A DNA stretch of 64,000 bases, taken from contig OZ316892.1 of assembly GCA_973895155.1 (NCBI GenBank), positions 10,272,283-10,336,282 on the forward strand, given 5' to 3'. How positions within the stretch are numbered: position 1 is the first letter of the stretch; every line of letters starts with the position of its first letter. This document shows, piece by piece, positions 36,138 to 59,000 of the stretch. The notes under the pieces were generated by a model. That model was given only the letters and a program-made list of their open reading frames with translations, searched no databases and had not been told where the DNA came from. The translations under genes and the position numbers were made by a program. The stretch comes from Marsupella aquatica (Eukaryota > Plantae > Marchantiophyta).

Positions 36138-36900
36138 GCCCCCAATCCCCCATTCGCCCCCTTTCAAGGGGCCCTCAAGAAGCAGTCCAGTTTGATTGGC
36201 TCCCATTCTCAGGGAGGCCCACTTTGCTCTGCCCAAGTGCCCTGCACCCCTCCTCCAAGTACAGTGCAATAGGGGGTCTCAAAGCTCCAAAGTTGATGAT
36301 GATGTCTTTTGGTACACAAACAAATGGCTATAGCTTTTTCAAAGGGTTGTGTAAAAGTTTGTTTTTTTTCAAGCGCCCCCCTACAGTGACTTATGACCAA
36401 TTTTCATGGCAAAAACCCCCCTACAGTGACTTATGACCAATTTTCATGGCAAAAAGTTATGTATTATGAATTTAGTGGGCCATAACTTTTTCTGTCCATA
36501 ACCTTCACTATCAAGCTAAGGTATATCAAATTTTGAGGTTTGAGACCCCTTATTGTGTGATTTATGTAAAGGCCTATGTACTTGGAATATAAAGCTCCCA
36601 TGGACACAAGGTTGGTTTTGTAACGCCCCATTTGCCCCCTTGCACGCCACCCTTGAGAGGCAGTCCAGTTTGATAGGTTGGCATTTTCAAGGAGGGACAG
36701 TTTGCTCTGCCTAGTTGCACCTTGCTATAAGTTGCACCCCCTATAAATGCAAGATCTGGCTTATATAGCCCCCAATCCCCCATCTAACCCCTGTCAAGGA
36801 ACACTCAAGTAGCAGTCCAGTGAGAGTCCAGTTTCATTGGTTTACATTTTTTGAGAGGTACAATGCGCTCTTCCTAAGTGCACCCTCCTGTAAGTGCAGT
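36138..36900. repeat. Three diverged ~130-bp repeats upstream of GPAT9, interrupted by a MITE
   Basis: ccccaatcccccat...gcagtccagttt.attgg...tgctct.cc.a.gtg..c near 36140, 36625 and 36770. Confidence 0.75.
36267..36555. mobile_element. MITE with ~25-bp TIR CAATAGGGGGTCTCAAAGCTC
   Basis: caatagggggtctcaaagctccaaa ... ttttgaggtttgagaccccttattg. Internal ~40-bp duplication at 36376-36455. No clear TSD. Confidence 0.7.
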
Positions 36901-39900
36901 ATCTGGTTTACAGCAAGCCCATTGTACAACGTAAAGCTCCTGTAGACACACACGTTAGTTAGTTAGTTAATGTTTGGTTTGTGTCTGTTGGGGTTTAGTG
37001 AGGGGTATGACTACCATGCGAGGAAACAGGAAAAAAAATGCTCGTAACAGGATTTTATTTGCTGTAAGAAGGTTTTTTTTGGCAGAATGGGCCCTTTTTC
37101 TCTCATAACAAGGTTCAGATGTCAACCCGCTAGTAATAACTTGCCTCGCTAGCCAAAAATGGCCGAGCAGTTTGTTTGGATTTATCAGAGAAGGTCCTGT
37201 AAGCTAAGCACAATTCAGGCAAACATTACTAACGGTCTGGAGTTCTACTTTTCATTTCCAACTAGGGGATCGACATGGGCAATCATACACATTAGACCAC
37301 CCCACTACAAACATGATATTACACCTTATGACGGGAAAATAACCTCGTCATTCATAGTCTGATACAATCACACCTCATTCAATAATGTAATATGATTCAG
37401 GCATCCTATTTAGTATGCACAAGGAAAAACAACAAGAGTGTTTCTCTGAATAACCACCATTTGTTCAAATAATACACTATAAATGAACTCTTTTAAAAAT
37501 GAAGGCTAGCGACCTCGCTAGCAAAAAAACAACCAACATATGGTATTTTTGTATATGCTTGAAAAGAACATTCCTTTATTAATGGAAATATCTATGCTCA
37601 CAACTTAGAAACAAAATATTCTACTCCTTATGGTCATGATATCATGGTCAAAATATCTCACCCTCTGAGAAATCTAAATTAATTAAAACAAAATCCAACT
37701 TACTTCTCACTTAAAAACAAAACTCTTTCCAAAGAGGACCTGTCCATCTCAAACCTCAATTGCCCGTTGAGTAAGATTGGAAATTTCAGCTATGGTTAAA
37801 ATAGGCTGCTTAACAATATCATCACTATCCAAGTTCAAATTAAACGGTAAACATTCTTAAAAACCCAAAGAATATGTTTGCAAGACATATAAGGTTTTCC
37901 ATGCAAATGCCTCTTGAAGAAATCTGGACAGGAACAACAAGGAAAAGAGCACAACTGAATCCAATATTTACTCGACTTACTTGGATTGTTTTCATGAGTA
38001 GCAATCAAAAACTGTGATCCCCATCCGTTTCCTTGGATGACTTTCTCAGAAGCTACGACCCTCATTTGTTCGTCATTTGCAGCCTGAATCCTTTTCAAGA
38101 GTTCTCCTGTGAAGTTGAAACGTTGTCGAGTACCTTTTCCATTCCGTGTCTTCATTCGTCTATTTGGGTAGGTTACATCAACCTTCTCTGGAAAAGAGTT
38201 CACGTCAATGCGAAGTTCCACCCGGTAATTTGGAGGAGAAACAATGCCATCTGGTTGGCAGTCCATGTAGTAGAGACCCTCAATTTGAAAACCCATCTGA
38301 ATCAAGAAGTTGATTTCAGGAGGTGTCAACCCTGTCCCTCGATGAACTTTCAGAGATTCAGGAACTAAAGGAAGTTGGGAAATCGACTTGCGACCCCTTG
38401 TTTTGTGATAGATATTGTTTGGACAGAAGTACAGAAGTTGAGTGTGCAGCGAAGTGATTCTCAAACCGTGGATGGCAACCCCAACAACACCGCATGATCT
38501 TTTGTGATACCCGACTTCCTTGATGAAGTTCCTACACTCGTCTCTTCCAGAAATGGTTCGATCCATAGACCCATTGCAGACTGGACCATTTCCGTTTCCA
38601 CACCTCTGGAAGTGCCAAGTCCCAAATGGTATGTCTACTTCATGTACAGCTGGTATTCACCGAGGTGGAATATGAATCGGTTCCCCTGTACCAAGAGGAG
38701 ATACAGCTTCTTCATGCAACGGCCTTGGAATTTCTTGAGTGTCATCAATCGACATATCAGTGCCATTTTCTTCATTATCAGAAAGAAGGATCACAACGGA
38801 TGGGTCCGAAACAACTTCTGGACCTCTAGACGACATTGAGTGATGGAGTATTCCGGAAGTTTCCAAAACATCTTGCTTATCTTCCACCACTTTCACACTT
38901 CCAAAATCCGAATATAGATTTCTAGGATGTACCCCCCTGGTCACTGCCTCGGTTCGCATTACCCTATCATGTCGATGAGAGTCTTCAGCACCAATTCTTG
39001 CCGAAGCAGGACCTTTTCGCTTTCCAGACTTTGTGCAAAGATCCCCGTGAAGTGGTTGGGTACAATGGAAATCGTACTTTGGAGATGACTAAAGCAAAAG
39101 ATTTGATGCTTTCTCGAAAGCATCAAGAGATCCAAGAGTATCTGCATTCCGATATGCAAGTTCAAAAATGGTTGGTCCATGTCCCCTGTGACATCCCTAA
39201 ATGTACGCAGCAAACACAGCAATCTGTTCACCAGCTCAATTTTGATCCAATTCACAAGCTTCCAACAATCCGATCTTCCTCTTCATTTGACAGGCTCTCA
39301 TTGACGCATGTACAGATTCTGCTCCAGTACAATTTGGCATCAATGCTGACTCCTTTGTTGTTTGAGTCTGAAATCCAATACAAAAACAACATAAGATTGT
39401 GTATCATGATGAAAGGGCCACAAACATAAACTCCCACTTAACCAGAATGCTAGCGACCTCGCTAGCCAACTCAAGTGGTTTACTTCACTTACCAGTCTGA
39501 AGTAGTTTCCCCACTATCGCCAACGAACAACCCACTAGGCAATCCAGCCTTGCAAAGCCCTCAATTTACCATGATGACAATTCCCAGATTTCCACCACTC
39601 TTGAATCTCGTTTGCCACTCTGTATGCCTCAACATATGTTGGAGCATTCCAAAATTTCTCCCACATCTTGTAATGCTCTGAATGTTTCCCGTCACGAATT
39701 CCCTCCAATGTATGACGTCTCAGAGACTGAGACAAATGGAATGCATCACTATGTTCTCTTTCTGGGAACCGGACACCATCAAAGAAAACATTTCTCACAG
39801 CAATCCATCCAGCTTCAGCATTGTCAGCCATAAAACCTGTTATCTCTACCTCACTAATACCATTCTCAGCAGCAACCTCCAACATTAAACGCCATGCAGT

Positions 39901-40576
39901 TTCCAAAGAGTCAGCATCCTCAGCTTTCAATTCACAAGTGAATATTGTACAAAGAGCACGGTAAGTGTGATCATAAACATGAGCACTGAAAGTGAGCCAA
40001 CCTGTTGTTATCCTATGCATCACGTCAAAACTCACCCATGCCCCCTCTAAAGTTCCTCCTCTTTGCATGCGACGGAGAATGTCAACACCTGAACCTGGAC
40101 CCTTGGTACTCATCTTGAACACATGAGCCCGGATGGACTTCCCAGCCTGTCCAGGGAACATGAACCTCTGAAGGAATGGAAATCTCACACGCGTTTGCAT
40201 CTCACGAAGTGAATCCAACTCACCTTTCTTGGGATTTCCTATCTTAACACTTCGAAAAATTGCATGGAACTTTGTCGGCGATGACACAACTTTCATTGAA
40301 TTCCACAATTCAACCTCCTCTTCTTTTGAAAGATCTTGGCATGACTCGGGATGCAAAAGCGATATCAATGTACCTATAGAAATGTTCTTCACCCTGGAGG
40401 GTGTTGCTAGTGGATGAGCTATCTGAACGCCTTGAATAACTTCTTCCGCTTTCTTCTTGGCAACTCGACACTTCCCCGTTCGAACTGGATGATCATGAAA
40501 TCCCATATGCACAGCAAGTCGAGACATATGCTTTGATATATGTGAATCCAAGGCCGGTTTTGCGTACACATAAAAC

Positions 40577-40968
40577 ATCTTTCATGACTTGTTGGACCAA
40601 GGAGTGGTCGTCTTTATTGACGACATGAGAAGTTGCTCAGAGAAGTGTTCTCTTGCCTTCGTAAGGCTCGTCTCTTTGCTAAACCTAGCAAGTGCGAGTT
40701 TGCGATGAACGAGATTCAATGGCCATACCTTTACCCGAAGGGGATTACGCCTAGTCAGGACAAGCTTAAAGAGATCAAAGAATGGGAGCGTCCATCCAAT
40801 GTAAGGCACGTTAGAGCCTTCTTGGGGTTTACGGGGTTCTATCAGAGATACATGAAAGACTGCAAGGATCGCAAGGCCCCTAAATGCGCTAATGTTGAAA
40901 AAAAAGTGTTTGTGTGGACACAGGATTGCGAGTTAGCATTCTTAGAACTCAAGCGGCTAATGATAATG
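40577..40968 (+). repeat. Duplicated chromovirus RT fragment (copy of ~58093-58522)
   Basis: Near-identical to 58093-58522 except for a 31-bp deletion between ACAT microhomologies, a 5-bp deletion, a 1-bp deletion and a few substitutions. Confidence 0.95.
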
Positions 40969-42030
40969 TGTGACACGGGTAACGTGTCACTTGACCGAAC
41001 CCAGGTCGTAGATTAGGACTTCTACGGTCATTAGGACCGTAGCTGTAGTGTAGAATAGCACGTATAGCCGTCTGTTGCCATTATGATTAGATTAGGAGTA
41101 GGTTAAGCTGATCGAATCATTACGAGTTCAGGAAGGGGATTATTACGCACGACCGAGGTACGGTGGCGGCAGCGGAGTAAAAATCAGCTAGAAGAATCAC
41201 GCTTGGACCGAGGCGCCGACTTCAGCTCGCTATCAATAACCAAAATGGCCTGGCCTTCTCACGCTCGGGCTCATCCTGGCACCTTCATAAGAGAGGAGCC
41301 GATGGTGCTGCGGGCCATTTGCTCATGTCTACCTTTCTTTGAATTCGCGGACGTTGCCACCCACTCGCCCTGCTGATCGAATCGAGTCGACCTTTACAAG
41401 GAGATTATCGAGGGAGAAGGCTTAGTTATCTCAGCAGAGGGAAGGTGAGGCACGGGGAGTCCCGGCCTGAGCAGGGTCAGAGTGCACCAAGGAGTGAGAG
41501 CCAGAGTCGAGCTTGTTGGGCAAGTGCGAGGCAGGGCCTCGTAGAGACTGGGCATCGACTGCCGTTGGGCATGCTGACCCCCTTTGAAGTCGAGTCAACC
41601 ATGTAAACTGATGCTCCACTGAGTAAATGTAGTCTTTTCCCCCTAATGTTTCTGCAAGTAACTGGTGTTGTGTGTATGCTTTGTCTGGGTAAAGGCGCCA
41701 TTTTAAGGGACGTACAGGGTGCGGACTAATGGTAGGGATTGCCACTCATTGTATGTCACAAGGTCCTGTCGTGTCGATGGCTTGAAAGGCCCCAAGCCGG
41801 GAGTTAGTCCGAGTCACTAACTGAGGGAATATTCCAGCGGTGGAAAACAAATATACCTATGACTAGTACGAATTATTCAGGTGTTATACCGGTAAGTATA
41901 TCGACTTAGCCCGACTTAGGGCTAATTGAGGTCACTACACACCTCCTTGCCCGAACCCTCACCCTTACTGGTGGTCGAGGTCGCACCATGGCACTAAACT
42001 GGATTTAAGGCCCAGGTTAGCGCCGCGACA
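40969..42030 (+). mobile_element. 5' LTR (1062 bp, TG...CA) of a non-chromovirus Ty3/Gypsy element
   Basis: Near-identical to 58523-59584. Preceded by TAATG and followed by a PBS-like TGGCGCTAGATGGAGGGG at 42048. Confidence 0.95.
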
Positions 42031-42144
42031 TACGGCGACCGGTTTTTTGGCGCTAGATGGAGGGGGCACTCATTTTGCCTTACCAGTGGAGCCGTGTAGT
42101 GAGCTAGTAACTTTTGATTTTGTACTCGACGTGTAGGAAGGGGC

Positions 42145-45100
42145 ATGCCCCTTACCCGGTCACGTTCTGCGTATTTACAACAACCGGACGGAGCATCAAG
42201 GTTGGAAGAGAATACCGCATCCGGCGAAGCGAGGAGCTCGGCTTCCCAAGCAGGATCGCGTGTTGTGATGGGTACCCAAGCACCAATGGCGGGAGGAACT
42301 CCACCGGTTCCACCAGCCCCGCAAGTACCAGGTGCGTTGCGGCCCCCTACGGCTCAGAACATGTCTCAGCGATCCCGGTTTCACTATCAACCCTTTAAGG
42401 GACGACCCACGGACGACCCTGATGAATGGATAGCTGAGTTCGAGGCCACGGCCAAGGCGAATGGTGAGGAAGCCATTAAGCTAACCATTCTTCCAGGCGT
42501 GCTACAAGGAGAAGCGCGCCCGTGGTATAACTTACAACCCCCGGGTTTCACATGGGGCCAGTTCCAAACGGCGTTCTTGCAAGAATTTCGGCCCGTCGGG
42601 ATCGAATCTCGGGCCCTGTCAAAAATCGGACGAATGCAAATGGGTAAGCATGACTCACTTCGCAAATTTCTGCAACGGTTCCAGAAGGTTGCCGCCAAGA
42701 TTCGACCTAAGCCAGATGACTCTTTGCTGAGGAAATGGTTCGTCAACGCGCTACCCCAGAGGATGGCGTTCTCGGTACTAGAAAAGAAGACCACCACTCT
42801 GCAACAAGCAATTGATAGTGCCGAATCCTTCAGGGAATCGCACTACGCCTCTCAGCTTAATCGGAGGACCAAGCATAAGAAGAGCAGGAGGTATCATACC
42901 TTCAGCGACTTTGACTCTGAATACGACGAGAAAAAAAGGAAGAAGAAATGACGACATAAGAGGAAGGGCCAGACCAGCTCTTTGTCAGACTCTGATTCAG
43001 AGTCTAGTGATTCCCTGTCCAGTAGCCCGACGTCAACTGGCTCATCCTCCAACGAGACCGAGTCAGAATCTCGAAACCACCGAAGAAAGAAGGGATCACG
43101 GTCAGATATGGGTAAACATAAACCGCGAGCCAAAGTCGTCACCACGGACCCAAAGGCTGCTGAGGTAGAAAAGCTGAACGAAATCACAGACCGGCTGAAG
43201 GCACTGTCGGTGCACTTGGCGGAAAAACCTCCGGACAAGAAGAAACCACCGGAAATCCGAGCGCATGCTTGGTGCTCCAAGTGTTATCAGTCGGGACATG
43301 TGGTGCAAGAATGTCCAAGATGGAACACTCGCGTGCACCAGATGGAGTTGGAGCCCGGACAGTCCGAGCCAGAGGGATGCACGATGGAGTACTTCTTCGA
43401 GGATCCAGGTGAGGCGGTGTTCCAGATGAGTATGACGGGACCTCGCACCCTAAGCGGCCACAATCCAGGGTTCCATACCCCTTATCCATACCCGGTGAAT
43501 GGGCGTGGCCCCCAGATGGTCAGCAATCCAAGTATCCCACCTAAACCCGGAGTTTGGACCCCGGTTTGCTATAATTGCGAGAAACCTGGTCACTTTGCCC
43601 GAGAGTGCACGGAGCAACGAAAGCAAGGGGATGGGAGAGCGCTTCCATTGTGCCAAGTCTGTCGAACCGAAGCACACTCCACGTCAAATTGCCCCTTGGT
43701 GCTAGCCGCGAAGGCCGGTGCCGTCAGAGCTGCTCAACCTGCGGCCCCACCAATTACGGATGCAGTAGTACAAATGGTAACAATGGAATGGCAGGACGAC
43801 TCCACCGAGTGGATCGACCTTATAGAAGCAGTTGAGCAAACGGGAACACACGCGGACGAGTGCTACCGCGTTTCTACTCGGTCGTCCCGCAAGAAGGACA
43901 AGTACAAAGAACGAGTTCGGAAGGATGCCCAACATAAAGAGGCGGTCCTGGATAAGAATGTTCCAATGGAACCCGACGAGCTAAAAGACTACCAGCGGGA
44001 TAACCCGAAGCTATTTTACCCGCGAGTAGAGGAACTGGTCAAAAAGCAATTGGAAGCCTACGAGGCCCAAGAGCACGAAAAAGCCATTAAGAAGGATATT
44101 GCCGATGCAAAGGCAATAGAAGAAGCCGAGGAAGCGGAGACTGCCTTGCAAGCTGAAGTCAAGGGACCAGAAGCATTAAAATCTGCGACCCCACCATCTA
44201 ACCAATACGACATCAAAAAGGATGTTCAGAACTGTGCAGCTACAGCCACTGTCGGACAACTATTACAGGATAACCCGAAGTATCGGCAACAACTCAAAGA
44301 GATGCTGATAGGAAACCCTGGGCCCTCAGCGTTACTAATGCAGGGAGGACGTGCGAACAACGCAAGATAATTTTTAATGTAATGCAAACTAATTTTTATA
44401 ATATTTTTTAAAGTAGGCAACATCCATGTATATACATTCATCACAATATTAGTAATAAGGCTCTTATCAAATACATGTCACATTAATCTTATGCAAGGGT
44501 GCCTAAAATGCCAAGGACACGTGTCACTATATGGTTGGCACACATGTCATCACTTCATTGGCACACATGTCCATATAGTAAATCAGACATTTAATTATTT
44601 ATCCTCTTAAGGCAAGTTTGGTTTCATGGGCTTGCATGGTAGACTTGTTTACCCGCATGTGTTAAGTTGAGAGTTAAGTAAATGTTGGGTCAGGATTTTG
44701 GGGCCCAACTCGTTTGGGTTCTGGGATTGATGGGGACCCATGAATCAATCCCACATAGACAAACAAGATTACTTTTGAATTCCCTCGAATCAAATGGCCA
44801 GGTATGAGGCCAGGTGTGTTTGTGTGTGGGGTGGTGTACTCCCTTGATCATTGGGTTGGGGGGGTACCCGGTGCTCACAGTTGTTTGATTGCAGATATGG
44901 CAGGAAAATTACCCACCATGTCTAAGTAACAATTTCAGCCAAAGGAGATTTGATGGTATTACTCTCCACAAATTTCAGTAGTCATTTTTTGTATTATTAG
45001 TACTTTGTGTCTAGAATATATATGATTAATGTGTGGTTTGATGTGTCAGGTTGCATGAAAGAAGTTGCCAAAAACTCTACTTATCATTTGGTGTTAATGG

Positions 45101-48100
45101 TTGATGTCATACCATTCTTAGTCAAGATAGAATAATTTAGCAATTGGAGTTTACATAAGTAGTATATATGCAATTATTCCTCCAGGACCAAGGATATAGC
45201 ATAGCATAATAATGCCTTTGTACTAGTTCAGTTTATCTCTATGAGGTCTACAAGTTGCCTGAGTTATAGTCATATACTCTAGGAAGAACTATAAATCTTT
45301 AGTATTAATTTTGTTATGATCTACATAAAATATGTACCGTGAACATCAGCGTAACATAATATTCCCCTATGCAAAATAGAATCTTTTATGTTTCAGTATG
45401 ATATTTACAATTTTTAAAAATTCAAGGGTTTTTTTAATTCCTTGAAAAACTTTGTTATAATTTACAAAAGGATAAATTTTTATAGGAAAAAATAATGTTT
45501 TTACATTAACAAGGGATTTTTTTTTGTGAACAAAAATATTAAGAAGGGGTACACGGGGGGTGTCTGTTCTCAGGGGGGTTCACTTAATATAGTAAGAGTG
45601 AGGGCCCAGGGATAGGAAAGAGGAGGCGACGGCTACCTCGGGTAAGCACCTTAGCCGACTGTATGATGATTTACCAGGACTTAGGAGCGCCGGAAGTCTC
45701 TATCGAGATAGCGGGTTGTACTGTTCGGTTTGTACCGGTAGACGGCGGGTCCGGTGTAAACATCATGACGGAAGACACTTCCGTAAGGTTGGGATATACG
45801 TCTTATCAACCCACGGCGCACGCCATTCGGTTAGCAAACGGCGCCAGGATCATGCCACTGGGGACGTTAACCAAGATATCCACGTGGATTGGAGGCCTCG
45901 AGTTTTTCCTAAATTACCTAGTGATGCGACCAGTTCGACCCTCTTCTTATCCAGTACTGCTGGGCAGACCCTGGTTATACGGTGTCCGAGTCGTGACTGA
46001 CTGGGGAAGGAAGGAATTACGATTCGGTAACCCGACTACGACGGTATCATGGAAGGAAGAAGACTACCAGGGCGAAACACCCCAGGGACCCGACGAATAT
46101 GACTCGGAGGAGGACATCTCAGAAGAAGAGGTGAATATGGTGGAGTTAATCTCTCTCCTGGATGAAGAGGAAGTCTTCGGGGTAAGTGTTGTCCGAGAAA
46201 CCCATTTTCTGAACCAGCCTAGGCCAGCAGCCCAAATCGAAACACCCGGGAGGCCAGAAGGAGATGATGCGGCAATGGGCGGGGCATTCCCCGGAGAAGT
46301 GAGCCCTACGAAGGCAGTTGGGCGGCTTGCCTTGCCCGGTTTACCTGAAGAAAACGCTACTCAGACCGCCACTCCTCCCACAAAGAAAAAGGTTACCTGG
46401 AGCCCCGAGATTCTGTCCGTAATAGAGGAACCCAAGGAGCTCCCAAGGGAGCGGCCGACAGTCTGGGGACCCATGGCCTACGATGGCACCAGACTAGAGG
46501 AATTGGAGGCTCATCTTGATCGGACCACGAGAGACCATGTGGATGTAATCCGCAAGGAGCACTATGGCAATTACACCACAAGGAGGGAGAGAACATTCAA
46601 CGTCGGTTATGGCCTACGAGCGCCAGAGGAAAAGGCCATCCAAGAAATCCTATCGGAATATGAGGACGTCTTCGCATGAAGTCACCGAGACTTAACCGGG
46701 ATTTCACCAGCCTACGGCAAACACGTCATTGATCTAAACTTGGGTGCTCATGCCGTCCGAGAAAGACAATGAAGACTAAACCCAAGACATTCCATCTTGG
46801 TAAAGGAGGAGTTAGATCAACTGATCGTGGCAGACATAATCTACCCCGTCTTATCTAGTGAATGGGTATCCCCCATTGTGGTGGTTCCTAAGAAGGTAGG
46901 GCTACTAGGACACCGAGTGTCCAAACGGGGGATCGAGGTGGACCAAGAGAAGGTGGCCGCGTGGATGAATGTCCCTTACCCAGCGGACCAGAAGGCGGTG
47001 CGATCCTTCTTAGGTTGCGTAGGGTACTACCGACGATTCATTCAGGATTTCGCTAAGATAGCCCTACCCCTCACAGAATTGATGAAGCAAGACGCGGTCA
47101 TAGAAATGACTCCCCGTCGAAAATCAGCCTTTGACGAACTAAAAAAACAGCTAACGATGGCTCCGATTCTGACTACCCCCGATTGGAACAAGGAGTTCCA
47201 TGTATATGTCGATGTGTCTGGGTTCTGCATCGGCTCAGTCCTAAGCCAATTGGACGACAAAAAATATGACCACCCCATTTACTTTGCGAGCCGACAACTG
47301 TTTGCCGTAGAGAAAAACTATTCGCCCATAGATCGGGAGGCCTTGGGGATCATCTACTCGTGCAAAAAGTTTCGCCATTATCTATTGGGGTATAAGGTGG
47401 TATTCCATACTGATCATGACAGCCTGAAGTACATGGTAAACAAAGCAGACTTAACGGGGAGAATAGCCCGTTGGGTCCTGCTACTCCAAGAATTTAACTA
47501 TGAAGTCAGGGTGCGACCAGGGAAAGCTCACGTAAATGCGGACTTCTTCTCGAGGATTGAAGGGGAATCGGACGACGCACCTGTCGATGATGCATTCCCG
47601 GATGAGGAGTTATTCCGCGTAGAAACGGACCAACTAACATGGTACGGGGACCTAATCACCTTCCTCTTAACGGCCCGCATTCCAAGTAACACAAACCAAG
47701 AGGCCACGTCGGTCTTTCTGCGCAAGGCCACACCATACATGATGATCCGCGGACATCTGCATAAGGAAGGCATCGATGGGAAGATCCGTCGATGCCTAGA
47801 TTATAACGAGACGATCATTGTCATGCGAGCTATGCACGAGGAAGAGGCAGGAGGACACTTCGCCCCGGTCACCACGGCTCACAAAATCTTGGACGTAGGT
47901 TATTGGTGGCCTACGCTCCATCACGACGTAGCCCATTTTATCCGAGGTTGCGACTTGTGTCAGCGTGCAGGCAAACCTCGCAGGTCGGGTAATCATCCTC
48001 TTACCCCGATCTTTCCCCTTGCCCCGTTTGAGAAATGGGGCATTGATTATATAGGACCTTTCACTCCGGTAACCCGAGGTCGGCGTTGCCGGTATATTCT

Positions 48101-48140
48101 TCTGGCTATCGACTACTCGACTAAATGGATCGAGGCCCGG
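42145..48140 (+). pseudogene. Ty3/Gypsy (Athila/Tat-like non-chromovirus) gag-pol, disrupted and 3'-truncated in integrase
   Basis: Retrotrans-gag (FKG...DPDEWI..FE, L.GEA..WY), CCHC knuckles (CSKCYQSGHVVQEC, CYNCEKPGHFAREC), protease VDGGSGVN, RT remnant (EWVSPIVVVPKK then LLGH), RNase H (FHVYVDVS, PIYFASRQL, TDHDSL) and integrase HHCC plus PFEKWGIDYIGP...KWIEAR, which ends abruptly at ~48140. In-frame stops at 42949 and 46677. Confidence 0.92.
44316..45611. mobile_element. Non-autonomous TIR element (1296 bp) inserted in gag-pol
   Basis: TIR CCCTGGGCCCTCA...TGAGGGCCCAGGG, extending imperfectly to ~22 bp. 8-bp TSD ATAGGAAA at 44308-44315 and 45612-45619. Removing it restores the frame MLIGK|RRRRLPRV. 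AT-rich non-coding interior. Confidence 0.93.
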
Positions 48141-49758
48141 AAACAAGCTCAACAATATCTCCAGACTTGACCTCCCAAACTCTTCCTCCATCAAGACTTC
48201 TTGGAATGAATTCATCCTTTCGATCACCATGAACAGAAACAAGAAAAAATAGCTTTGAGATGTAGTCACCATTCGTGATACCAAATCTCGTCAAGAGGAA
48301 TGACTCAGTCACCGGGGTGATCTTCCTCATGGAAGACACCTCCAAGTTAACAACATCACCATTGCTCCTTTGCCAGAATATGACCACCAAAGCCATCGAA
48401 TTGAGATGAAGAAACATTACCAAAGGTAGTGGTATAGAAGATATGTAAGAAAGTCCAAAAACTACATCTAACGGGATTAAATGTGAACGTTGAGGGAACG
48501 TTGAATAAACGACAAAATGTCCAACGGATACATCAAATCAAGGAGATGTAATATAGCTAGCGATGTCGCTAGCAAAATCCTCTCAATTTTGATTAACCAG
48601 TAGACATGTCATATTCTATATAGAGTGATCATTTAGAGACTATTTAGAGACCATTTAGGGACATGTAGGGTATGATTTCAGGGAATATTCTGTCAAGCCC
48701 TTCAATTTTGGGGAAAAGACAAAGGAAATATAGAAGATTAGTTTTAAAGACTACCTTTTGTCAAACTTCACAAACCAAAACCTTCAACTCAGAAAGAATG
48801 TATTGCCAGCGATCTTGCCTGCAAAAATCCAAACGGTCCTAGAGGATCCATTGAGTCAATGACTAATACACAAAGTTGTCAAATAAACCCTAGTTATCAG
48901 GTCAGCGATGTCGCTAGCAAAATCCCCAATATTCACCTTATCTCTTTGATGTAGTAAAGGTCAATATCCCTAATATTTTGGTGTCTTATTCAATACCCTA
49001 GTTAAGCTACCGATCTCGCTACCCATAATGGATGACCAGGAAACAACGAGTTAACAGATATTTTCCATCTCACATCTTTAATGTTTATACTTTCTTTAGA
49101 CAAATGTTGGTTTGGGGAAAGGCATTTAGAGTCCCTCAAAATTAAACAAGAATAAGAAACTCTTAAAATACCCTAAAACATTCTTGTGTGTTAATATATT
49201 ACCGTTGAAAATCTGATGTCCATTTGGAAAGCGATCTCGCTGGCTTAAATCTCAAACTTTAATGACCAGGAAATATATGGGTATGGTTTACTCATAAGTC
49301 TTTCCCAACGGTAAAATGGAAGGTTGGTCAATGTTAAAATTGATAGTTTCCGTTAACAACCTCTAAAGGGAACGTCGCATGGGGGTTAATGCTGAATATT
49401 ACGGTTATTCTAGTTGCTCAGGGTATTCATGACGTTCCAACTTCAACCGATGATGTTTAAAAGAGACTTGCATTTTTTTATTGCCATCTATGAGGGACGT
49501 TGGATTATTCCCTGTCAATGTCAGATATCCAGTTCACTGTATGTGGATTACTTAGGATTCTCCCTCTAATCCAACTTTGGATTCCGAGCTTGGTCCTTTG
49601 CTAATCTCGGTCGTCCTCCTCCGTTTTACTTTGGATACTCTCTCAAATGAGACTTTGGATACTCCCTCTAATCTGACTTTGGATACCAATTAGAAGTCAC
49701 CATACCCGCTGCAACGCTTCATTCGTGTGTTACTCCCTTCCATTTTCTTTATCAGCCG

Positions 49759-52700
49759 ATGGCAAATTTTGCATCACCAGAGTCTATCTCTTCTCAAGCT
49801 TCACAGTCTACAGCTTCTCAGTGTCGAGAGACAAGGTCTTCGACTACCAACAAGGCACTAGCTTCGGGTTTGAAGACACCTCGTCGAAGGAAACTTGTTG
49901 ATCCGATGGAGATTCTGCCACCACCGATGGAGTCTTCTAAGTCGGAACAGTTCTCCGTGGTGATCAATCGTCACCTCTACCACTTTGGGCCAAACAAATT
50001 TGGGTATCCCCTTGTTCCCCCTCGAATTCCACTGTGTAGGATGCAAAACATGCAGCTCGTCAGGTCGCTGCAGACTGATTCCAATGCAATCGAAACCCTC
50101 AAGAATGAGTTTTGAGCTCAGGGTTACATTGAGGACGCGCCCAGGTTTTACGTTCAGATGACGAACGAGAATGGTGAGGTTCAGTTCATCAATGACACCA
50201 TTCGAATGGGTTGGGATCCGATACGGGCGTTGCAGAACAAAGAGAGAGAGTGTGATTCTCATCCGAACTTTGCTGTATTGAAGGACAAAATGTTTTACGT
50301 TTTTGACGGTAATCATCGTCTATACTCGTGGAATCTGCTGGCCATCGAGAATCCACATGATATCAAATATCATCCTCGTGTTGTCACCAAGATTTTCAAA
50401 GGGGAGAAAGACACGTTTGTGCAGATTGAATCTGCAATGCATGCCCTGAATCGGTGAGCATCGGATCTGTTCTTATTGATTCAATGCTGTCTGTCACTTC
50501 ACATTTCGGGTTTTCTTATCTAGGATTTGTACTCGAAACATCTTTGATACTTTTGTTCATTGGCAGGCTCACTCAATGCCACGTTGAGAATTCATGGGTC
50601 CTTGAAGCAGATCGTGTCCAGAAGATACTGAACACGGACTTGTCGGTCTACAAGGATTTGATTGATGCAGACAATTTCAAGTTGTTCCAACAAAAGATGC
50701 AAAATGTGAAGAAACCCTCCTGGTATTCAAAAAAATGACCCTGGATGCTTGTATTTACATTCTTTCAGCTGCAAATATAGCTTCCCAAACTACGGATTTG
50801 CAGAAGAAGTTTTCTCTCAAGGAGGATCTTGGAGAACCTTTGTCAAAAGTTGCAAAGGACATTGCTCTACGAGAAATGATGAAGGAGCAACTATCTGATT
50901 GGAATGTTAAAGTTCCAAAAATTGCTCCTCTTCTCAATCCCGAATTCGGGGATTTCTTTGAGAAATGTGTGGAGATGCACAACTACTGTGAGAAAGAACG
51001 GAAGGAAGCACAAAGGACTGATGATAAAGGGAGAGGAAATGTCTCATGTGGTCTTGATCGAACAAGGCTTTTCACCGGGGTAACATCTCTCAGCCCACTG
51101 CTTTGTTGCAATCTACTTGAAGCGCAGTGCAAGCCCGAGCTACGGAAGCAATATTTTCATCCTGGGCAATTCTCAGATAGTGAGACTAAACTCTGGCTGC
51201 ACAGGTGGGCTACGTGGGAACAAGTAGAGTCGATTGCTAGATCTCTTTTGTCCGAAGCTATTTCAGAAATGATTCTAAGTTTCCCTGAATCTCGAGTTCT
51301 TTCAGCCTCAGAGAAGAACAAGGCATCACTTGTTCTTGATGTTAGTGATGATTTTGAGGACTTTTTGCAGCAAGTTAAATCCAGGTTTTTCAAGAGCATT
51401 TGGGCCCCAAAAGTAGGGGAAAAGATAGATATTGTCGCATTTCGGAGAAGGGCAAAAAGATATGTATACCGATTTTTTGTTGACCGGGAGGTGGCCAATA
51501 GAGCATTCTGGTGGTGTTACCCCGCGTGTTTCTCCCAGTGGGCTGAATATGTGACTGACGATTTAGGAAATAAAAAATGTGGTGACTACTCAATGTACCC
51601 TTGTGAAGACGTTGAGCCACTCCGGAAGATGAGTGAATGGGAGCAGAAGATGAGTGAATGGGAGGTTTTACACTGTCCATGGTACTTAGATTCAGAGAAT
51701 TGGTCACTGACATTTGATGGGACAGAGAAGCTTGCTTTGCAAAAGATAAATCGTGGGTTAGTCCCAGAGTTTTCTATTTCTGAATCAAAAATGCCCAGCC
51801 TCGAAGCAGTGCAGGCCGGGTGTGAGGCGATGGAGCAAGCTTGCCTTGGTGTTGCACCAATTGTTGATAGAAGCCGTTCCAGAAAATTGAAGAAGGACGT
51901 TGTGAAGGAGGTGTCGAAAGAGACCTCTCAGGTTTCCGGCAGGAGAAGTAATTGTGCTCATCGTCCTAACTCTCAATCGGCTTCTAATGTTTAGTCCTTT
52001 CTTTGCAAATTCTCGTTTTCTCAGGTTTTTGGTTCTCTTTTGTTTTCCAGAAAAGAGAAGATCGACTGGTTCAGAGAGTGTCCAGACTGTGCAGAATCGT
52101 GGGCGACAGGATCCCATTGAACCTGAATCTCCGGATTTTGAGATTGTGACGAAACCGATTGGTGATAAGCTTAAGAAGAAGAGAAAGGTTCAAGTGCTCT
52201 CAGATTCAGAAGATGAGGAAGGGTAGATCAGTGAGGGTGTGATGAGGATATGTGGACTTCAACTGGATGGGAATCAACATTTCTTTGCCAGGAGTAATTT
52301 GCGTTTCACTGCAGACTCAATTGCTTTGAAGAAAGTTCGACCTTCGTGGATGGGGGAGGGGGATCGTTGGCTGAGTGAGATTTTGAGTTCTTCAGAACAT
52401 CCGAATCCCCTAAGAATCAATGGCAAGCCTTACACCGGCACCAGTGCCCATCTTGGGTTCATTGCTCTTCCTACAGGACTAAGGCCTCGTGTTACTGATG
52501 TGAAGGTGCTAGAATGGAATGTTTGGATGGAGAAACTTCCTTATTACTTCTTCGGAGTCATGAGGCCGATGTTGTCCGATGATGGATATGTGGCTGTTCT
52601 CCATAGTGGAGAATTTAACCACATGAAGCAGATTTTTGCTGCCATTGAGCAGAAGAATAAATTCAAACATCTTCGCCAGTACCACGTTTTGTTGAGTAGC

Positions 52701-53354
52701 CCAATGTGGATGCCAGACATCGATGTTGAGGTGAGATGTCAAGATTTTTTGGTTTAAATTATAGGTGTTTTTTGCCAGCGAGGTCGCTGGCCTTCACAGC
52801 CTCAGTATTTGACATATTTTTTGCTTTTCCAGGTTTGCAATCTCAGTCTGGATTTGTTTTGTCAAACTGAATTCGATGGGAAGATCCCCAAGGACCCGAA
52901 GTACATCCCCATGGCAACATCTGAGGATGCATCTCATAAGAAGTTACTCACTCTTTGTTACCCAAAAATAAATGTCAGGACTGAGTTAGCTTTTGCAGGG
53001 TCTTGTCGATTATCTGTTGGATTCATGCAGGCGGTGATGGAGCTTTTGACAAAGCCAAGAGACATTGTGCTAGATTGGAATGTTGGAGATGGAAGTTCAT
53101 TCCGAGCGGGGGAACTCTTGGGGAGGTTTGTAGTTGGGGTTGAGGATAGGGAATTTCTCCATGATGCTGCGCAGGAGTCGTTGAAGTTGGTTCTGGATCG
53201 TCATAAGAAAATTGAAGACATCACTGTCGGGATGGGTACTGATCATTGGAGGACGGGGATTCAGATGACGAGTTTACTCTTGCCGGATCGAGTGGTGGAA
53301 GAACGAAAGTTTCTGCTCCGGATGGGAAAGATGACCACGATGAATTTGACCTAG
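49759..53354 (+). pseudogene. MULE second gene: ParB/Srx-like domain + long middle region + beta-class N4/N6 DNA methyltransferase-like domain
   Basis: Exon 1 from ATG 49759 reads through a probable CGA>TGA at 50113: IPLCRM...VR.L....I..LK..F...GY...FYV...FYVFDGNHRLYSW (DGNHR at 50305-50319). Introns at 50454-50566, ~51930-52050 and 52731-52832. A-run frameshift at ~50735 and in-frame TAG at 52224. MTase-like AHLGFIALPTG (motif IV position), RPMLSDDGYVAV, then ELLTKPRDIVLDWNVGDGSSFRAGELLGRFVVGVE (motif I region). Confidence 0.75.
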
Positions 53355-53433
53355 AGTAATGTACTTATCCTGTCTCATACCAAATCCAACTGTGTTTAGA
53401 AAGTTAAGTTCAGTTTTTTCCACCTTGAATTAA

Positions 53434-53811
53434 TTGGCTGCTGATTTTGCTTCTTACAATGATCGGCGTGTAGATTGGTTCTTGGAGGAGAGATTTTGGC
53501 TCCGAAAGGAAATTGAGGGCGCTTTTCTCTTCTCGCCTGAGAAATCGTTCACTCTACCTTGCTATGCGGAGAAGTCTACAATTGAAGCTGATGAGACTTT
53601 TGTTATGACTTGGGAAGGAAAAGGTCGGAGGTCAGATCGTGGCGCTCGGAGGAATTTGTACAGCCTTCCTTTCATTGATGTTGAGGCGGGTCATGTGAAG
53701 AGATATGTGGACGAGTCCGCTGAGTCAACTGATAGGGAGTTTAGCAGTGAGGAAATCAATAGTAGTAGAAGGAGTGATTTGGAATCAGATGAAAGTCATT
53801 CCACAAATTAG
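53434..53811 (+). CDS. Small ORF or extra exon inside the MULE, acidic C-terminus, unknown function
   Basis: 125-codon open frame with non-ATG start between the MTase-like gene and the right TIR. Contains LPFIDVEAG and an acidic Ser-rich tail. Confidence 0.35.
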   Translation: MAADFASYNDRRVDWFLEERFWLRKEIEGAFLFSPEKSFTLPCYAEKSTIEADETFVMTWEGKGRRSDRGARRNLYSLPFIDVEAGHVKRYVDESAESTDREFSSEEINSSRRSDLESDESHSTN

Positions 53812-56054
53812 TGTGAAGTTTTATTCTGCTTGTGTGTCCCCTGAATGGGAAGCAACAGAATAAGCTTGATCTCTTTAGCCATTCTGGAGAACTTACTCTC
53901 AGTTTCAATAAAGTAATCGAGGCAGCCAATTTTGATGAGTGGGAAATGTCTGTAACTTGAGTATAATCTTTATTGGTTTTCTTGTTTTGTTCAGTTTTGT
54001 GTATGATGGAAGGCTAGCGCCCTCGCTTACAACCCATGTGCATTATGAAAGGTTTGACAAATGCTTACTTAGTTTGGTTGTGTGAATTCCTTTCTAGGCA
54101 CTAAATATGCCATTCAAAAAATGACATATCCCTCGCTAGCAAAAGCTCTTGTCGCTAGCAATTTCTCCTGTTTCCTTGCATGGTACAAACCCCCTTTAGT
54201 GAGTCCATCTGAGCACATTGTCAAACCTTTATGTCCATCTGGGCTTTTCTTACTCATTCTTCCCTTTTTTCCCAACATATTTTCCAATTTTTTCCTTCTA
54301 TGAGTGTTATAAGGTCTCCACTGGACTACAAAAAGAAAAGTGCATGTTCTCTATAAGAGTGCTATTAATACACTTATTGGTAGGAGTTGCTATTTGGTCC
54401 GGGTCCATCAGCGATTGGATGAGCGAGGGTATGTGGTGAGGGTGTGCCCCATGTTTAGAGTTTGCAGAATCTCTTGTGCAAAGTATCTAGAAGTGTGAAG
54501 TCTTGTGCTTGCACTTACAGCATAGTTTACATCTATGTAGGTGCAAGAGCATTTGGGTTTGCACATCTTGCTTAGTGCAGACTATGGATAAGTGCAAGTC
54601 TGGGCCTTCTTCCTGAGGCCTTGCACATCTTCTCAGTTTTATCTAATGACACTTGTCATTGCAAGTGTCAAGTTGTGCACCAATTACAGGTGTCTGGCAT
54701 CAGGGACAAATCCTATCATTATTGTTGTCTTAACATTTCCCAAGCTAGTGAGGGCTCTATGAGAATAATATAGTCAAAGTTCTATAAGTGTAAGGCCTCA
54801 GGACGAAGGCCCCTGCATTGTAGCAAGTCATAAGACCAATTTGAGAAATGGTGCATTTATTGATTGACTATAATAGACTGTACATTTAGAGGATACATAT
54901 ATATAATGAACTAGTAGAGTGAAGGAAAACAAAGTAAAGGTACAGTCAGCTCCTCCCTTGATACCACTGAAGGAATCCCCTCAACACACCATTCATAAGT
55001 TCAGTTTGGGAACTTCATCCCTCAACTCCTGCCTCTTATCTATAAGTGCAACATTTAGTAGATGGCCAGACGCTATGGTTGCACTTATGTGTAACTGCAC
55101 TCTATTGCGTTTTTGTTATGGTTTTTCTCATAAGGATAGGACTGCATCAACACTTGTAAAGGTCTTGTGCCTCGGTCTACAGTGGGTTCCATGTCAAACA
55201 CAACAGTTTGGGTAATAAACACCCTAGACTGTTTTTTTGAGAGTTTAAAGCATTTTAAGTTCAATGCTTTATGCTGAAAAATGGATTAAAAAGCACCTTG
55301 TTATTAATTTCACAAAAATTATAAGTATTCCACTAAACCCAAAAACATCCCTATACTTACTCACTGGTGTGGATATTAAGAGGAAAATAGTGAGGACCCA
55401 GGGAAGACGTATTGTATCTATAAAATAATTTGTTGTTGTAGTGAGCCTCTTTGTCACTTAGACTAACTGCAAAAAAGTCCATTTTCCCACTCAAAAAGAG
55501 AAAGAACCTCCTCCCTTGCAATAAGTCAGGGTTTTATTAAGTGCATGGGGGAGCAGTTATTCATGCTCACTTAGGCAGGATCGACTATACTCCTAATAGT
55601 CATTGTGCCTATTCTCTACTTGCACACTCAACTTAATGATGATTGAGTGCATAATTTCTCAAATTGCATTTATGACTGGCTGCAATTAACATGGAAGTGC
55701 ACATAGGGGCCTTTGTCCCAAGGTCTTGCACTTAGGGATGATGGACTATATTGCTCCTCTAGAGTCCTCACTATACTAGCTTGGGAATCTACATCTATAA
55801 TAAGGGATCCCGCCAAATCCCTCTCATCGTCCGTTTACAAAAAGAGACAAAGGAGGGAACATTGCTTTACCGTCAGACATGTGCAGGAATATTCACGACT
55901 CTTGGATTGGGGGACAAGGTGCCCATAATTTGAATAGACTTAGGATAAAGTATACTTAGTTATGCTAATTATTAGGGACTACTATGTCCTTAGCGCGCGT
56001 GCTAAGCATGAATTAGACCGGATCACTCATTAACCGCCATGCTGGCGGCGTCAC

Positions 56055-59000
56055 AAACTTACGATGGGGCCTATGAGCAAAGTGGACAAAAGTTCCTGAG
56101 TTGGCTCTCCACAATGGAGATTCATCTTCAAGCGTGCGTTGAGCGATCCACTTGGGCTACCGCAACTGCTCCTTACCTGAAGGACTATGCCTTGACTTAG
56201 TACAAGTCTTGGAAGAAGTCACGAGAGGACTCTTCCTTGCCGTTAACTTGGGAAATCATGGTTGAGGGTCTCCGTGCTCATGTCACCACTAAGTACTCAG
56301 AGCGGCACGCTCATAAATGTGTAACGGAGATGAGTTTTACGGGTGATATCCAAAAGTTCATAACTTATTACCAGAACCAGTTGGCGTGTATCCCGGCGGG
56401 GCAAGAGACCCTACATACGCAGCTTCACAACTTTATAGTGAAGCTCCCACCGTTGCTCAGGGAAAAGTTATAGGAAAAGCGTCATGAGTTTAAAACGCTT
56501 TCTGACGCTTTCGACAAGGCCACTACGTTGGTGAATAACCGACCGGACTTGGCAAAGGTGGGTGGCAAGGGAACTGAGGGGGAAGTTGGGAAAGCAAAAG
56601 GTCCCAAGAACAAGGGTAAGCAACCGGAGGGGGCGGGGGCCGGTGATTTGGATCCTCGGCCCCTAAATGGAGAAGCAAAGCGCAACTGAAAGGCCGACAA
56701 CTTCAAGAAATGAACCTCATCGGCACAGAAAGCAAAGAAGTAGGCGCTCATGGAGCAGAGGTGTGCGGGAGGTTCATGCTACACATGTGGCGCCATGGGC
56801 CATCAAAGTAAGGATTGCCCCTCAAAGGGTGGCAAGCCGAGTGAAGATGGAGGGCAAAAGGGCATTAAGGTAAGTATCGCTCTAACCAAACCCTTAGTAG
56901 TTGACGAGGTCCCTGTGGGGATGTTCTTGCCGGAGAGAAGGTGTTGTTGCAAGGGAAAGTACCTAAGGTTAAGACAATGGATCCTGAAAAGCTGATATTT
57001 GTGAATGTCACTTCTAACAGTAATCTGGGTGTTGCGTTGGTAGATACAGGTGCGACCGCCTACTTCATAAGTGGGTAGGTAGCGGCACGTCTTGGGGTGG
57101 ACGTGCAAGAGTTGCTACAACCGTTAGTGTGCAAGTTTGCCAACGACACAAAAAGGATAGTGTCAAGAGTGGTGCATAGACTTGGGTAGAGGTCATACGC
57201 GAACAACAAAATTTTGTTAGTCAAGAGATGTTCTACGTTCTAGATGGTCTAGCGGTAGACTTCATTTTGTCGGTAGGTTATCTCAAGAAGCACAATGTTA
57301 CCTTGAAACCGGGGGATGAGGTGCTTCATGCATTTTCCCAATAAGGGCGATGAGCCCATCGTTGTACACAAAATTACCAAAAATAAATAAATATTTCTCA
57401 AAGTAAAGTGTCGTGGTTGTCTCCGTGTGTATCGGCAAAGCAATGGTGGAAAGGCTTCAAGGGTGGGCATGAATGTCTTTTCTTTCATCTCCACCCAGTT
57501 AAGGAGGCTGCCTCGTAGCCAAAGGTTAAGTCAGCTAAGGTCGGGCCCGACTGCGGTCAAATTAATGAAATTTTAGAGGAATTCAATGATGTGCTCTCGC
57601 AGAAGCTACCTAAAGGTTTACCCCCGCGGAGAGAAGTGGATCACCAAGTTGAGTTGGAGCCAGGTTAGGCTCCTCAGGCTAAAGCTCCTTATCGTCTGAA
57701 CCTGAATGAATGAATGATGTTGAAGAACACCTTGGAAGAATTGATCAACCAAGGTTCATTCGTCCTAGTACGAGTCCTTATGAGGCGCCCGTGCTGTTGG
57801 TGTCCAAAAAGGATGGTACTTTAAGATTGTGCGCAGATTATCGAGCCCTCAATAAGCAAACGGTAAAGAACAAATACCCGTTACCTCATATCCAGGATGA
57901 CCTCTTCGATTGCCTCTCCGTGGCTAAGAAGTTTTCAAAGGTGGACTTGTAGTCTGGGTATTACCAAATTTGCATGGCTAAGGGAGACGAGTATAAGACC
58001 ACGATGCGCACAAGGTTTGGATCCTACAAATTTTTGGTTATGTTGTTCGGGTTGTGTAATGCAACCGTAACATTCATGAAGATGATGAATACCATCTTTC
58101 ATGACTTGTTGGACCAAGGAGTGGTCGTCTTTATTGACGACATCCTAATCTACTCAAAAATGTTGGAGGAACATGAGAAGTTGCTCAGAGAAGTGTTCTC
58201 TTGCCTTCGTAAGGCTCGTCTCTTTGCTAAACCTAGCAAGTGCGAGTTTGCGATGAACGAGATTCAATTCCTTGGCCATACCTTTACCCGAAGGGGATTA
58301 CGCCTAGTCAGGACAAGCTTAAAGAGATCAAAGAATGGGAGCGCCCATCCAATGTAAGGCACGTTAGAGCCTTCTTGGGGTTTACGGGGTTCTATCAGAG
58401 ATACATGAAAGACTGCAAGGATCGCAAGGCCCCTAAATGCGCTAATGTTGAAAAACAAAGTGTTTGTGTGGACACAGGATTGCGAGTTAGCATTCTTAGA
58501 ACTCAAGCGGCTAATGATAATGTGTGACACGGGTAACGTGTCACTTGACCGAACCCAGGTCGTAGATTAGGACTTCTACGGTCATTAGGACCGTAGCTAT
58601 AGTGTAGAATAGCATGTATAGCCGTCTGTTGCCATTATGATTAGATTAGGAGTAGGTTAAGCTGATCGAATCATTACGAGTTCAGGAAGGGGATTATTAC
58701 GCACGACCGAGGTATGGTGGCGGCAGCGGAGTAAAAATCAGTTAGAAGAATCACGCTTGGACCGAGGCGCCGACTTCATCTCGCTATCAATGACCAAAAC
58801 GGCCTGGCCTTCTCACGCTTGGGCTCATCCTGGCACCTTCATAAGAGAGGAGCCGATGGTGCTGCGGGCCATTTGCTCATGTCTACCTTTCTTTGAATTC
58901 GCGGACGTTGCCACCCACTCGCCCTGCTGATCGAATCGAGTCGACCTTTACAAGGAGATTATCGAGGGAGAAGGCTTAGTTATCTCAGCAGAGGGAAGGT

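Follow-up and report, generated by a model that had tools for sequence, protein, structure and literature searches.

We analysed a 64,000-nt stretch of the genome of the liverwort Marsupella aquatica (contig OZ316892.1, positions 10,272,283 to 10,336,282; the window), in which a Mutator-like element (MULE) of 17.2 kb occupies positions 37003-54194. The element carries two divergent genes, one encoding a transposase and the other an accessory protein with a ParB-like and a methyltransferase-like domain, both of which are broken in this copy. Dispersed over its non-coding DNA are copies of an 18-bp palindrome, which an earlier examination of the letters of the window (the sequence-only reading) had proposed to be parS-like or VANC-like target sites of the accessory protein. 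The element is flanked by a 9-bp target-site duplication (TSD) and bordered by imperfect terminal inverted repeats (TIRs) of about 33 bp, as expected of a MULE, for which duplications of 8-11 bp have been reported (PMC6446971). An 8-bp duplication was rejected, as the 9-bp version fits with repeats of equal length. In contigs from four public sequencing runs (two organisms, two studies, one of them possibly the source of the window itself), the left terminus was confirmed by a jump in depth at 37002/37003, where the flanks vary as well, and the right half of the element was covered by 325-1,282 contigs at 80-100% likeness. The many contigs on the right half and the varied flanks at the left end imply a multicopy family. 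The features of the element, with the basis of each assignment in brackets, are the following:

36994-37002, forward strand: left 9-bp TSD, TTTAGTGAG (sequence; identical to 54195-54203)
37003-37035, forward strand: left TIR, about 33 bp, imperfect (sequence; in the public runs, contigs with loose ends and a jump in depth at 37002/37003)
37835-39367, reverse strand: second transposase exon, broken by stops and shifts (start homologous to the post-intron exon of L001, a relative described below)
39368-39492, reverse strand: transposase intron, GT at 39492, AG end predicted (homologous open reading frames end at the same place)
39493-40581, reverse strand: catalytic region of the transposase, with two in-frame stops (IS256/Mutator fold in a homologue)
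40582-48140, forward strand: inserted fragments of Ty3/gypsy-type retroelement (no target duplication seen, no palindrome inside)
48141-48396, reverse strand: N-terminal piece of the transposase, ATG at 48396 (sequence)
48397-49758: intergenic region of the divergent genes, a putative shared promoter, with five sites (sequence)
49759-53811, forward strand: accessory gene, probably of about five exons, with stops and a frameshift in this copy (homology, models)
52731-52832, forward strand: intron within the methyltransferase-like domain (GT..AG; both flanks align to one Riccia protein)
54162-54194, reverse strand: right TIR (sequence)
54195-54203, forward strand: right 9-bp TSD (sequence)

The palindrome, GCTAGCGANNTCGCTAGC, consists of two 8-bp arms around a 2-bp spacer and is represented by 12 sites, nine full and three half-sites, located at the element ends, in the shared promoter and in two introns. 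All were read from the sequence:

37146-37153: half-site TCGCTAGC, left subterminal
37505-37522: perfect palindrome downstream of the transposase gene
39449-39466: perfect palindrome within the transposase intron
48556-48573: perfect palindrome, intergenic
48805-48822: degenerate palindrome with 4 mismatches, intergenic; C at 48816 in other copies
48901-48918: palindrome with 2 mismatches, intergenic
49006-49023: palindrome with 2 mismatches, intergenic; G at 49010 in other copies
49227-49244: palindrome with 3 mismatches, intergenic
52774-52791: symmetric variant palindrome GCCAGCGA-GG-TCGCTGGC in the accessory-gene intron
54013-54030: palindrome with 3 mismatches downstream of the accessory gene
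54133-54159: two half-sites (54133, 54152) adjoining the right TIR

The sequence-only reading had placed all 12 sites correctly, and its statement that they are confined to the non-coding DNA of the element held when the borders were refined: 12 of 12 sites (p ~1e-6) fall within this part, which at 3,089 nt makes up 4.8% of the window and 32% of the DNA that belongs to the element itself, and no full site with up to 4 mismatches was found in the exons, in the retroelement insert or in the 46,808 nt outside the element. Three matches to GCTAGCGANNTCGCTAGC in the window are perfect, and eight have at most 3 mismatches compared to 0.10 expected, a number that none of 100 shuffles reached; the ninth full site, at 48805, has 4. 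Of TCGCTAGC, the exact half-site, the 64 kb contain 10 copies, all 10 of them within the non-coding DNA of the element; it is absent from the 46,808 nt outside it, from the 7,559-nt insert and from 6,670 nt of exons. Scored with a leave-one-out weight matrix, the nine full sites reached 14.0-28.2, compared to a maximum of 7.8 outside the element's own DNA, and background matches set in at 5 mismatches (seven outside the element, one in a transposase exon). The palindromes stand singly, spaced from 96 bp to kilobases, and no tandem array contains them. Location of the sites at 39449 and 52774 within introns, as had been proposed, was supported by GT..AG ends and by homology to relatives that ends there.

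Among the 21 half-sites, G1 and C6 are invariant, A4, G5, G7 and A8 have one exception each, and positions 2 and 3 often differ, leaving G-n-n-AGCGA as a near-invariant arm; the spacer measures 2 bp in every full site. Pairs are broken in five of the nine full sites, mostly at arm positions 2-3. Both arms of the site at 52774 are altered, as the sequence-only reading had pointed out, but the arm GCCAGCGA also occurs unpaired at 48805 and 49227, which makes it a tolerated half-site variant and not proof of compensation. The broken pairs and the unpaired recurrence of this GCC arm imply that sequence is conserved rather than pairing, and the recurring unpaired half-site variants together with the fixed 2-bp spacer fit a site for a protein dimer, not an RNA hairpin. 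Altogether, these data support well that the palindromes are a real, conserved cis-element of this MULE.

CpG retention had been brought forward as a further sign of function. The CpG is present in 20 of the 21 half-sites, with an observed/expected ratio of 1.03 versus 0.39 in other non-coding DNA, but this is largely circular as the motif is defined by its CG. Since, in addition, one site has decayed, we rejected CpG retention as evidence of protection; the pattern fits selection in active copies and lends local protection no support.

The sites also persist in other copies of the family. Among 40 of the 961 differences listed for the right part, motif letters were restored at 48816 and 49010 and an arm variant recurred at 54028, while among 40 of the 64 entries listed for the left end no variant fell into 37505-37522 and seven fell into the preceding 38 bp. 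In the first intron of the accessory gene, a divergent contig with a loose end at 50564 has a site that is missing from the window copy. The strongest evidence for the sites is their conservation in the same intron of L001, the sole relative found together with its DNA (one of 131 candidate stretches, from metagenomes), whose transposase is 60% identical. L001 has three sites of the form GCTAG(C/T)GC-NN-GCGCTAGC in this transposase intron, a number reached by none of 200 shuffles, so that the parS-like shape proposed earlier, an 8-2-8 palindrome in nine full copies that fits a protein dimer, is retained in a distant relative. Compared to the window sites, both arms have a different innermost base, which co-divergence of the site and its binder would predict. 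One of the L001 sites is extended to a perfect 29-bp inverted repeat (L001:1172-1231), suggesting self-correction of the palindrome or a tiny hairpin insertion.

Searches for relatives of the transposase and the accessory protein gave none in viral contigs or prokaryotic genomes and one in metagenomes. Exact-motif scans returned 50 viral and at least 120 prokaryotic loci; none among the matches listed encodes a relative, and they look like chance. A plasmid search with the promoter region gave no match. A Solirubrobacteraceae contig from a metagenome-assembled genome (L122:3915-4210) carries the 18-bp palindrome in two exact copies, separated by 190 bp, together with further GCTAGC words, upstream of a small gene that resembles, by eye, a ribbon-helix-helix regulator; this is probably an unrelated operator.

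Seven longer homologues of the transposase were identified, with 39-59% identity. One of them, when modelled, matched the IS256/Mutator transposase ISCth4 (E 6e-4) and the GCM domain 1odh (E 0.017, probability 0.95). On this homologue model the protein thus combines an IS256/Mutator DDE transposase with a WRKY-GCM1-type DNA-binding domain, as is typical of MULEs; the GCM part is deleted in this copy, where the retroelement insert (7,559 nt) takes the place of about 190 transposase codons including the GCM-like domain. No Pfam family covers these transposases. The second exon ends in a CxCxxF..CKH stretch, which we take to be SWIM-like. Transposases of this clade start with a predicted ubiquitin-like beta-grasp domain (residues 1-82 of the homologue P0003, corresponding to 48141-48396 of the window; weak Foldseek matches), which may be a contact for the accessory protein.

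The accessory protein is composed of a ParB/Srx-like domain with the motif DGNHR, a helical middle part, a linker and a beta-class N4/N6 methyltransferase-like domain, in agreement with the proposal of a MULE with a second gene of this kind, the ParB-like fold being seen in the model of a homologue. The middle open reading frame has 101 relatives at E<=0.001; the named homologues examined belong to two liverworts, Riccia sorocarpa and Calypogeia fissa, and a full-length Riccia member of 1,207 aa can be aligned to the window gene over all of its parts. At least 38 proteins of the accessory family are annotated in R. sorocarpa, some of which (P0110, P0112, P0113, P0118) were automatically named 'trimethylguanosine synthase', apparently a mislabelling. 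A homologue search with the ParB-like part as query found no longer protein among 574 candidates, and an Atlas look-up with two unbroken open reading frames gave no usable match.

A structure model of the Riccia homologue P0120 was built from 77 sequences (predicted local distance difference test, pLDDT, 73). Its best matches in three structural searches were ParB, KorB, Noc, PadC and sulfiredoxin (Srx), with KorB, PadC, pNOB8 ParB and Srx on ranks 1-4 of 48,161 chains. The N-terminal part aligned with ParB at Z 8.5 and a root-mean-square deviation (rmsd) of 2.5 over 99 residues; the match to KorB (Z 8.3, rmsd 5.9) covered 203/209 positions over residues 147-523, Noc was matched at Z 7.9, and Spo0J with 167/186 aligned at rmsd 4.3. 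The homologue model thus contains the ParB/Srx nucleotide-binding fold (Z 7-8.5, rmsd 2.5-2.8, 95-99 residues), and its DGNHR region has a homologous counterpart in the window. The structural alignments run on over the helix-turn-helix region of ParB at a loose rmsd of 4-14, a region to which sequence profiles give no support. A conserved G-x-x-R helix resembles ParB G201-R204 by eye. A custom profile alignment brought the N-terminal motifs into register, a result equalled by 3 of 60 shuffles. None of the 77 alignment members matched TIGR00180 among 25 of 26 families listed. Judged from the model, a ParB-type DNA-binding domain in the accessory protein is plausible.

The C-terminal domain weakly matches Pfam N6_N4_Mtase (E 5e-5, below the cut-off) and is also similar to phage DNA methyltransferase families; PDB sequence searches yielded nothing significant, the best alignment being to DpnA (E 0.15). 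Motif IV precedes the S-adenosylmethionine-binding motif I, which is present, as in the beta-class order. Beta-class enzymes have the catalytic consensus (D/N/S)PP(Y/F/W). At this position the window gene has ALPTG and 18 Riccia homologues have D-(L/M/I)-P-(T/S/I)-G, not the TSPPY/DPPY type. With the usual catalytic motif lost, the domain is more likely a changed or non-catalytic module than an ordinary writer of N4-methylcytosine (4mC) or N6-methyladenine (6mA). A close link to Marchantia DN4MT1 was rejected on the motif alone, as DN4MT1 has TSPPY and the accessory protein does not.

The two-fold symmetry of the sites and their fixed spacer point to a dimeric binder, and the element encodes two candidates, the accessory protein and the transposase. 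We favour, with moderate confidence, the view that the palindromes are docking sites for the element's own ParB-like protein, which would regulate the element, probably against host silencing. Several observations argue for this protein. In the ParB family, dimers engage palindromic DNA with two-fold symmetry (PMC7383237). Seven of the 12 sites lie in introns or the promoter, which is the VANC pattern and unlike the AtMu1 transposase, which peaks at TIRs, and TnpA, which binds at termini (10.64898/2026.08.24.746577). Moreover, the TIRs agree with the half-site at only five of eight letters, and a ParB-domain accessory gene of another transposon superfamily has adjacent inverted repeats. Dimers of the accessory protein would dock at the palindromes and might then load in a nucleotide-dependent manner and spread, like KorB or VirB; a preference for a particular nucleotide is not readable from sequence (10.1101/2025.10.10.680097). 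Docking would mark copies of the element as self, for recognition and regulation of its own copies, and the bound protein would probably keep the shared promoter active against host methylation silencing; alternatively, the outcome may be self-repression as with KorB. Taken singly, anti-silencing is a tentative proposal and KorB-like self-repression a still weaker one, and the two together make up the moderate confidence placed in docking of this protein. A more far-reaching version, in which a bacterial-style ParB-parS sliding clamp loads at private 18-bp palindromes in plant chromatin and spreads along the element, the altered methyltransferase-like domain writes or shields a mark other than 5-methylcytosine, site and protein diverge together between families, and VANC-like anti-silencing has thus been invented a second time and independently, appears doubtful as a whole.

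A number of findings weigh against docking of the accessory protein. The structure model represents a distant homologue and not the window's protein itself, Foldseek with P0120 gave no match at E<=0.001, and Z scores of 7-8.5 are close to the noise level of the structural tool, with two-domain matches at rmsd 4-14. Where the canonical ParB proteins compared have GERR, the P-motif here is DGNHR, with GxxR itself retained. A profile comparison with 29 ParB proteins detected neither domain, although the N-terminal positive control failed too, and in the custom profile alignment with ParB the DNA-binding domain scored below the shuffle mean (30 of 40 shuffles as good). Of the ParB/methyltransferase assignment made in the sequence-only reading, fold and domain order were retained, but the catalytic motif proved degenerate, the P-motif is not the canonical one, and the sequence test for a helix-turn-helix failed. 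The replaced catalytic residues count on the same side. On the side of the sites, contigs in three of the four runs skip 37315-37525 and hence lack the site at 37505, the L001 contig (2,078 nt) is too short to reveal an accessory gene, and two half-sites adjoin the right TIR, where the transposase would bind. Furthermore, the decay of this copy is of the methylation type: of the 40 differences listed out of 961, 11 are C>T or G>A changes in the direction of the window, nine in CG or CHG context and one within a site, and the motif CpG at 48816 is lost in this copy and kept in others.

The best-surviving alternative, which we consider unlikely but serious, is that the GCM-like domain of the transposase binds the sites, which would then act as helper sites or in autoregulation, both in subterminal and in internal positions. 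Its standing derives mainly from the right end, from which the two half-sites are 35 and 54 bp away. The modelled transposase homologue matches both the GCM domain and ISCth4, L001 as the sole relative with DNA was found through its transposase and has its sites in the transposase intron, and the left TIR and the CC-spacer sites have the 6-mer CCTCGC in common. The AtMu1 transposase alone has been reported to activate and hypomethylate its copies (10.64898/2026.08.24.746577). This alternative is opposed by the poor agreement of TIRs and half-site, by the location of seven of the 12 sites more than 2 kb from either end, and by the terminal binding of the AtMu1 transposase and TnpA in the same report.

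It is improbable that the sites serve a host protein, namely a dimeric factor of transcription or chromatin by which the element would be activated in a particular type of cell. Five sites are clustered in the shared promoter, and transposons often carry sites for host factors (10.64898/2026.08.24.746577); however, a 16-bp-specific palindrome that is absent from 46.8 kb of host DNA and altered on both arms in a relative fits a co-evolving protein of the element better. About as improbable, or slightly more so, are functionless or structural copies, namely short hairpins that template switching or small duplications have multiplied, or stems in the RNA with a helping role in splicing. The asymmetric flanks common to the sites at 37505, 52774 and 54013 do imply spread by copying, the perfect 29-bp inverted repeat in L001 can be taken as a sign of palindrome self-correction, and the intron around 52774 folds better than 193 of 200 shuffles. 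Nevertheless, sequence rather than pairing is kept (broken pairs in five of nine full sites, three half-sites, a constant 2-bp spacer), the intron around 39449 does not fold above chance (26/200), a motif-free intron folds as well as that around 52774 (7/200), Rfam gives no match, and the motif survives 40% protein divergence. Least probable of all is that the sites are recognition sequences methylated (4mC or 6mA) by the methyltransferase-like domain itself, a view that the Pfam, phage methyltransferase and DpnA-like similarities and the occurrence of 4mC in Marchantia sperm would favour, but to which the altered catalytic position is opposed, as is the length of a 16-bp bipartite site, which is long for a stand-alone methyltransferase.

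The arrangement of docking sites for a ParB-like accessory protein has several partial precedents. VANC of the Arabidopsis VANDAL elements binds introns, intergenic and terminal non-coding regions (PMC5735166), and the present element shares with this system the Mutator type, the accessory gene and a family-specific motif in all three kinds of DNA, so that the VANC-like spread over ends, intergenic DNA and introns noted in the sequence-only reading was reproduced. VANC motifs, in contrast, are non-palindromic words of 8-9 bp in tandem repeats (PMC5735166), as opposed to an 18-bp two-fold site and a ParB-fold protein here; hypomethylation is a feature of the Arabidopsis system, whereas the present element is known from its sequence. 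In the searches made, the accessory protein matched ParB folds and methyltransferases. KorB at its OB operator on plasmid RK2 (PMC11790492) and VirB at virS in Shigella (PMC10770331) are clamps of the ParB fold, loaded at an operator of 16 bp or at virS, and act on transcription from a distance. The predicted ParB fold and the palindromic site of about 16 bp are in line with these systems, KorB being among the best structural matches, but they are bacterial CTPases, whereas the protein here is eukaryotic and has a DGNHR P-motif, long insertions and a fused methyltransferase-like domain. The layout is therefore like VANDAL/VANC and the site shape like ParB-parS, and by the tests made the element is a member of neither.

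Closest by gene content are algal transposons. In Ectocarpus, Sola1-1_Ec32 carries an accessory gene for a 1,104-aa protein with ParB-like and N4/N6 methyltransferase domains, which its authors propose to bind and modify its own transposon (PMC12477816). Size (about 1,100-1,200 aa), domain order and a strand opposite to the transposase are the same here; the hosts differ, a Sola element of a brown alga versus a Mutator element of a land plant, and the comparison is by description, the accessible account giving no target motif (PMC12477816). The accessory gene PAG3 of Bostrychia Plavaka elements encodes a ParB-like N-terminal domain and has adjacent inverted-repeat arrays, for which self-binding was proposed, and homologous accessory genes were reported in Chondrus Mutator elements (10.1101/2025.02.11.637652). 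A ParB-like N-terminal domain in a transposon accessory gene and inverted repeats within the element are thus common to Plavaka and the present MULE. There, however, ParB is fused to a 2-oxoglutarate oxygenase with the methyltransferase as a separate gene, and the repeats form tandem arrays beside the gene, whereas here one fused gene is found and single sites are distributed over ends, promoter and introns. Methyltransferases in retrotransposons were already known (PMC5890265). In the literature covered, which included Iyer 2016, a MULE survey and a plant TIR survey and largely excluded subscription journals, we found no land-plant MULE with this gene or these sites; Supplemental Fig. 13A of the Bostrychia report, outside this coverage, may show similar repeats. 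The idea of a self-binding ParB accessory protein is accordingly already in print as a hypothesis for algal transposons. Beyond this, the MULE described here adds a Mutator-type host in a land plant, sites that are dispersed singly, a defined motif and a family-specific variant of it.

For the ParB-bearing accessory genes of brown and red algae, self-binding is a proposal, with candidate repeats mentioned in one report. In the present family the site is resolved to single bases, we know which positions tolerate change, and L001 provides a second variant, so that the pairing of protein and site can be tested by a swap. If the accessory protein is the binder, this would represent a eukaryotic use of ParB-parS-like recognition and possibly a second sequence-specific anti-silencing tool beside VANC; if it is the transposase, the finding comes down to transposase sites that form an internal array of an unusual kind.

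In its left part, the retroelement insert shares 98-100% identity with a chromodomain-type Ty3/gypsy element located at a distance of 17.5 kb (40576-41197 versus 58093-58751 onward). Its junction shows a 6-bp microhomology and no target duplication, and capture during break repair may have occurred. The gag-pol fragment is interrupted by a 1.25-kb AT-rich insertion with 22-bp inverted ends (44316-45611). Elsewhere, the window contains plant genes (PADRE, DUF7734) and pieces of CACTA and chromodomain retroelements, with CACTA transposase fragments (DUF4218, DUF4216) at its start (287-1434). The MULE itself is embedded in DNA that contains dispersed repeats of 93 bp as well as long, imperfect inverted ones (36148-36881 and 54602-55773), which is likely an older non-autonomous element.

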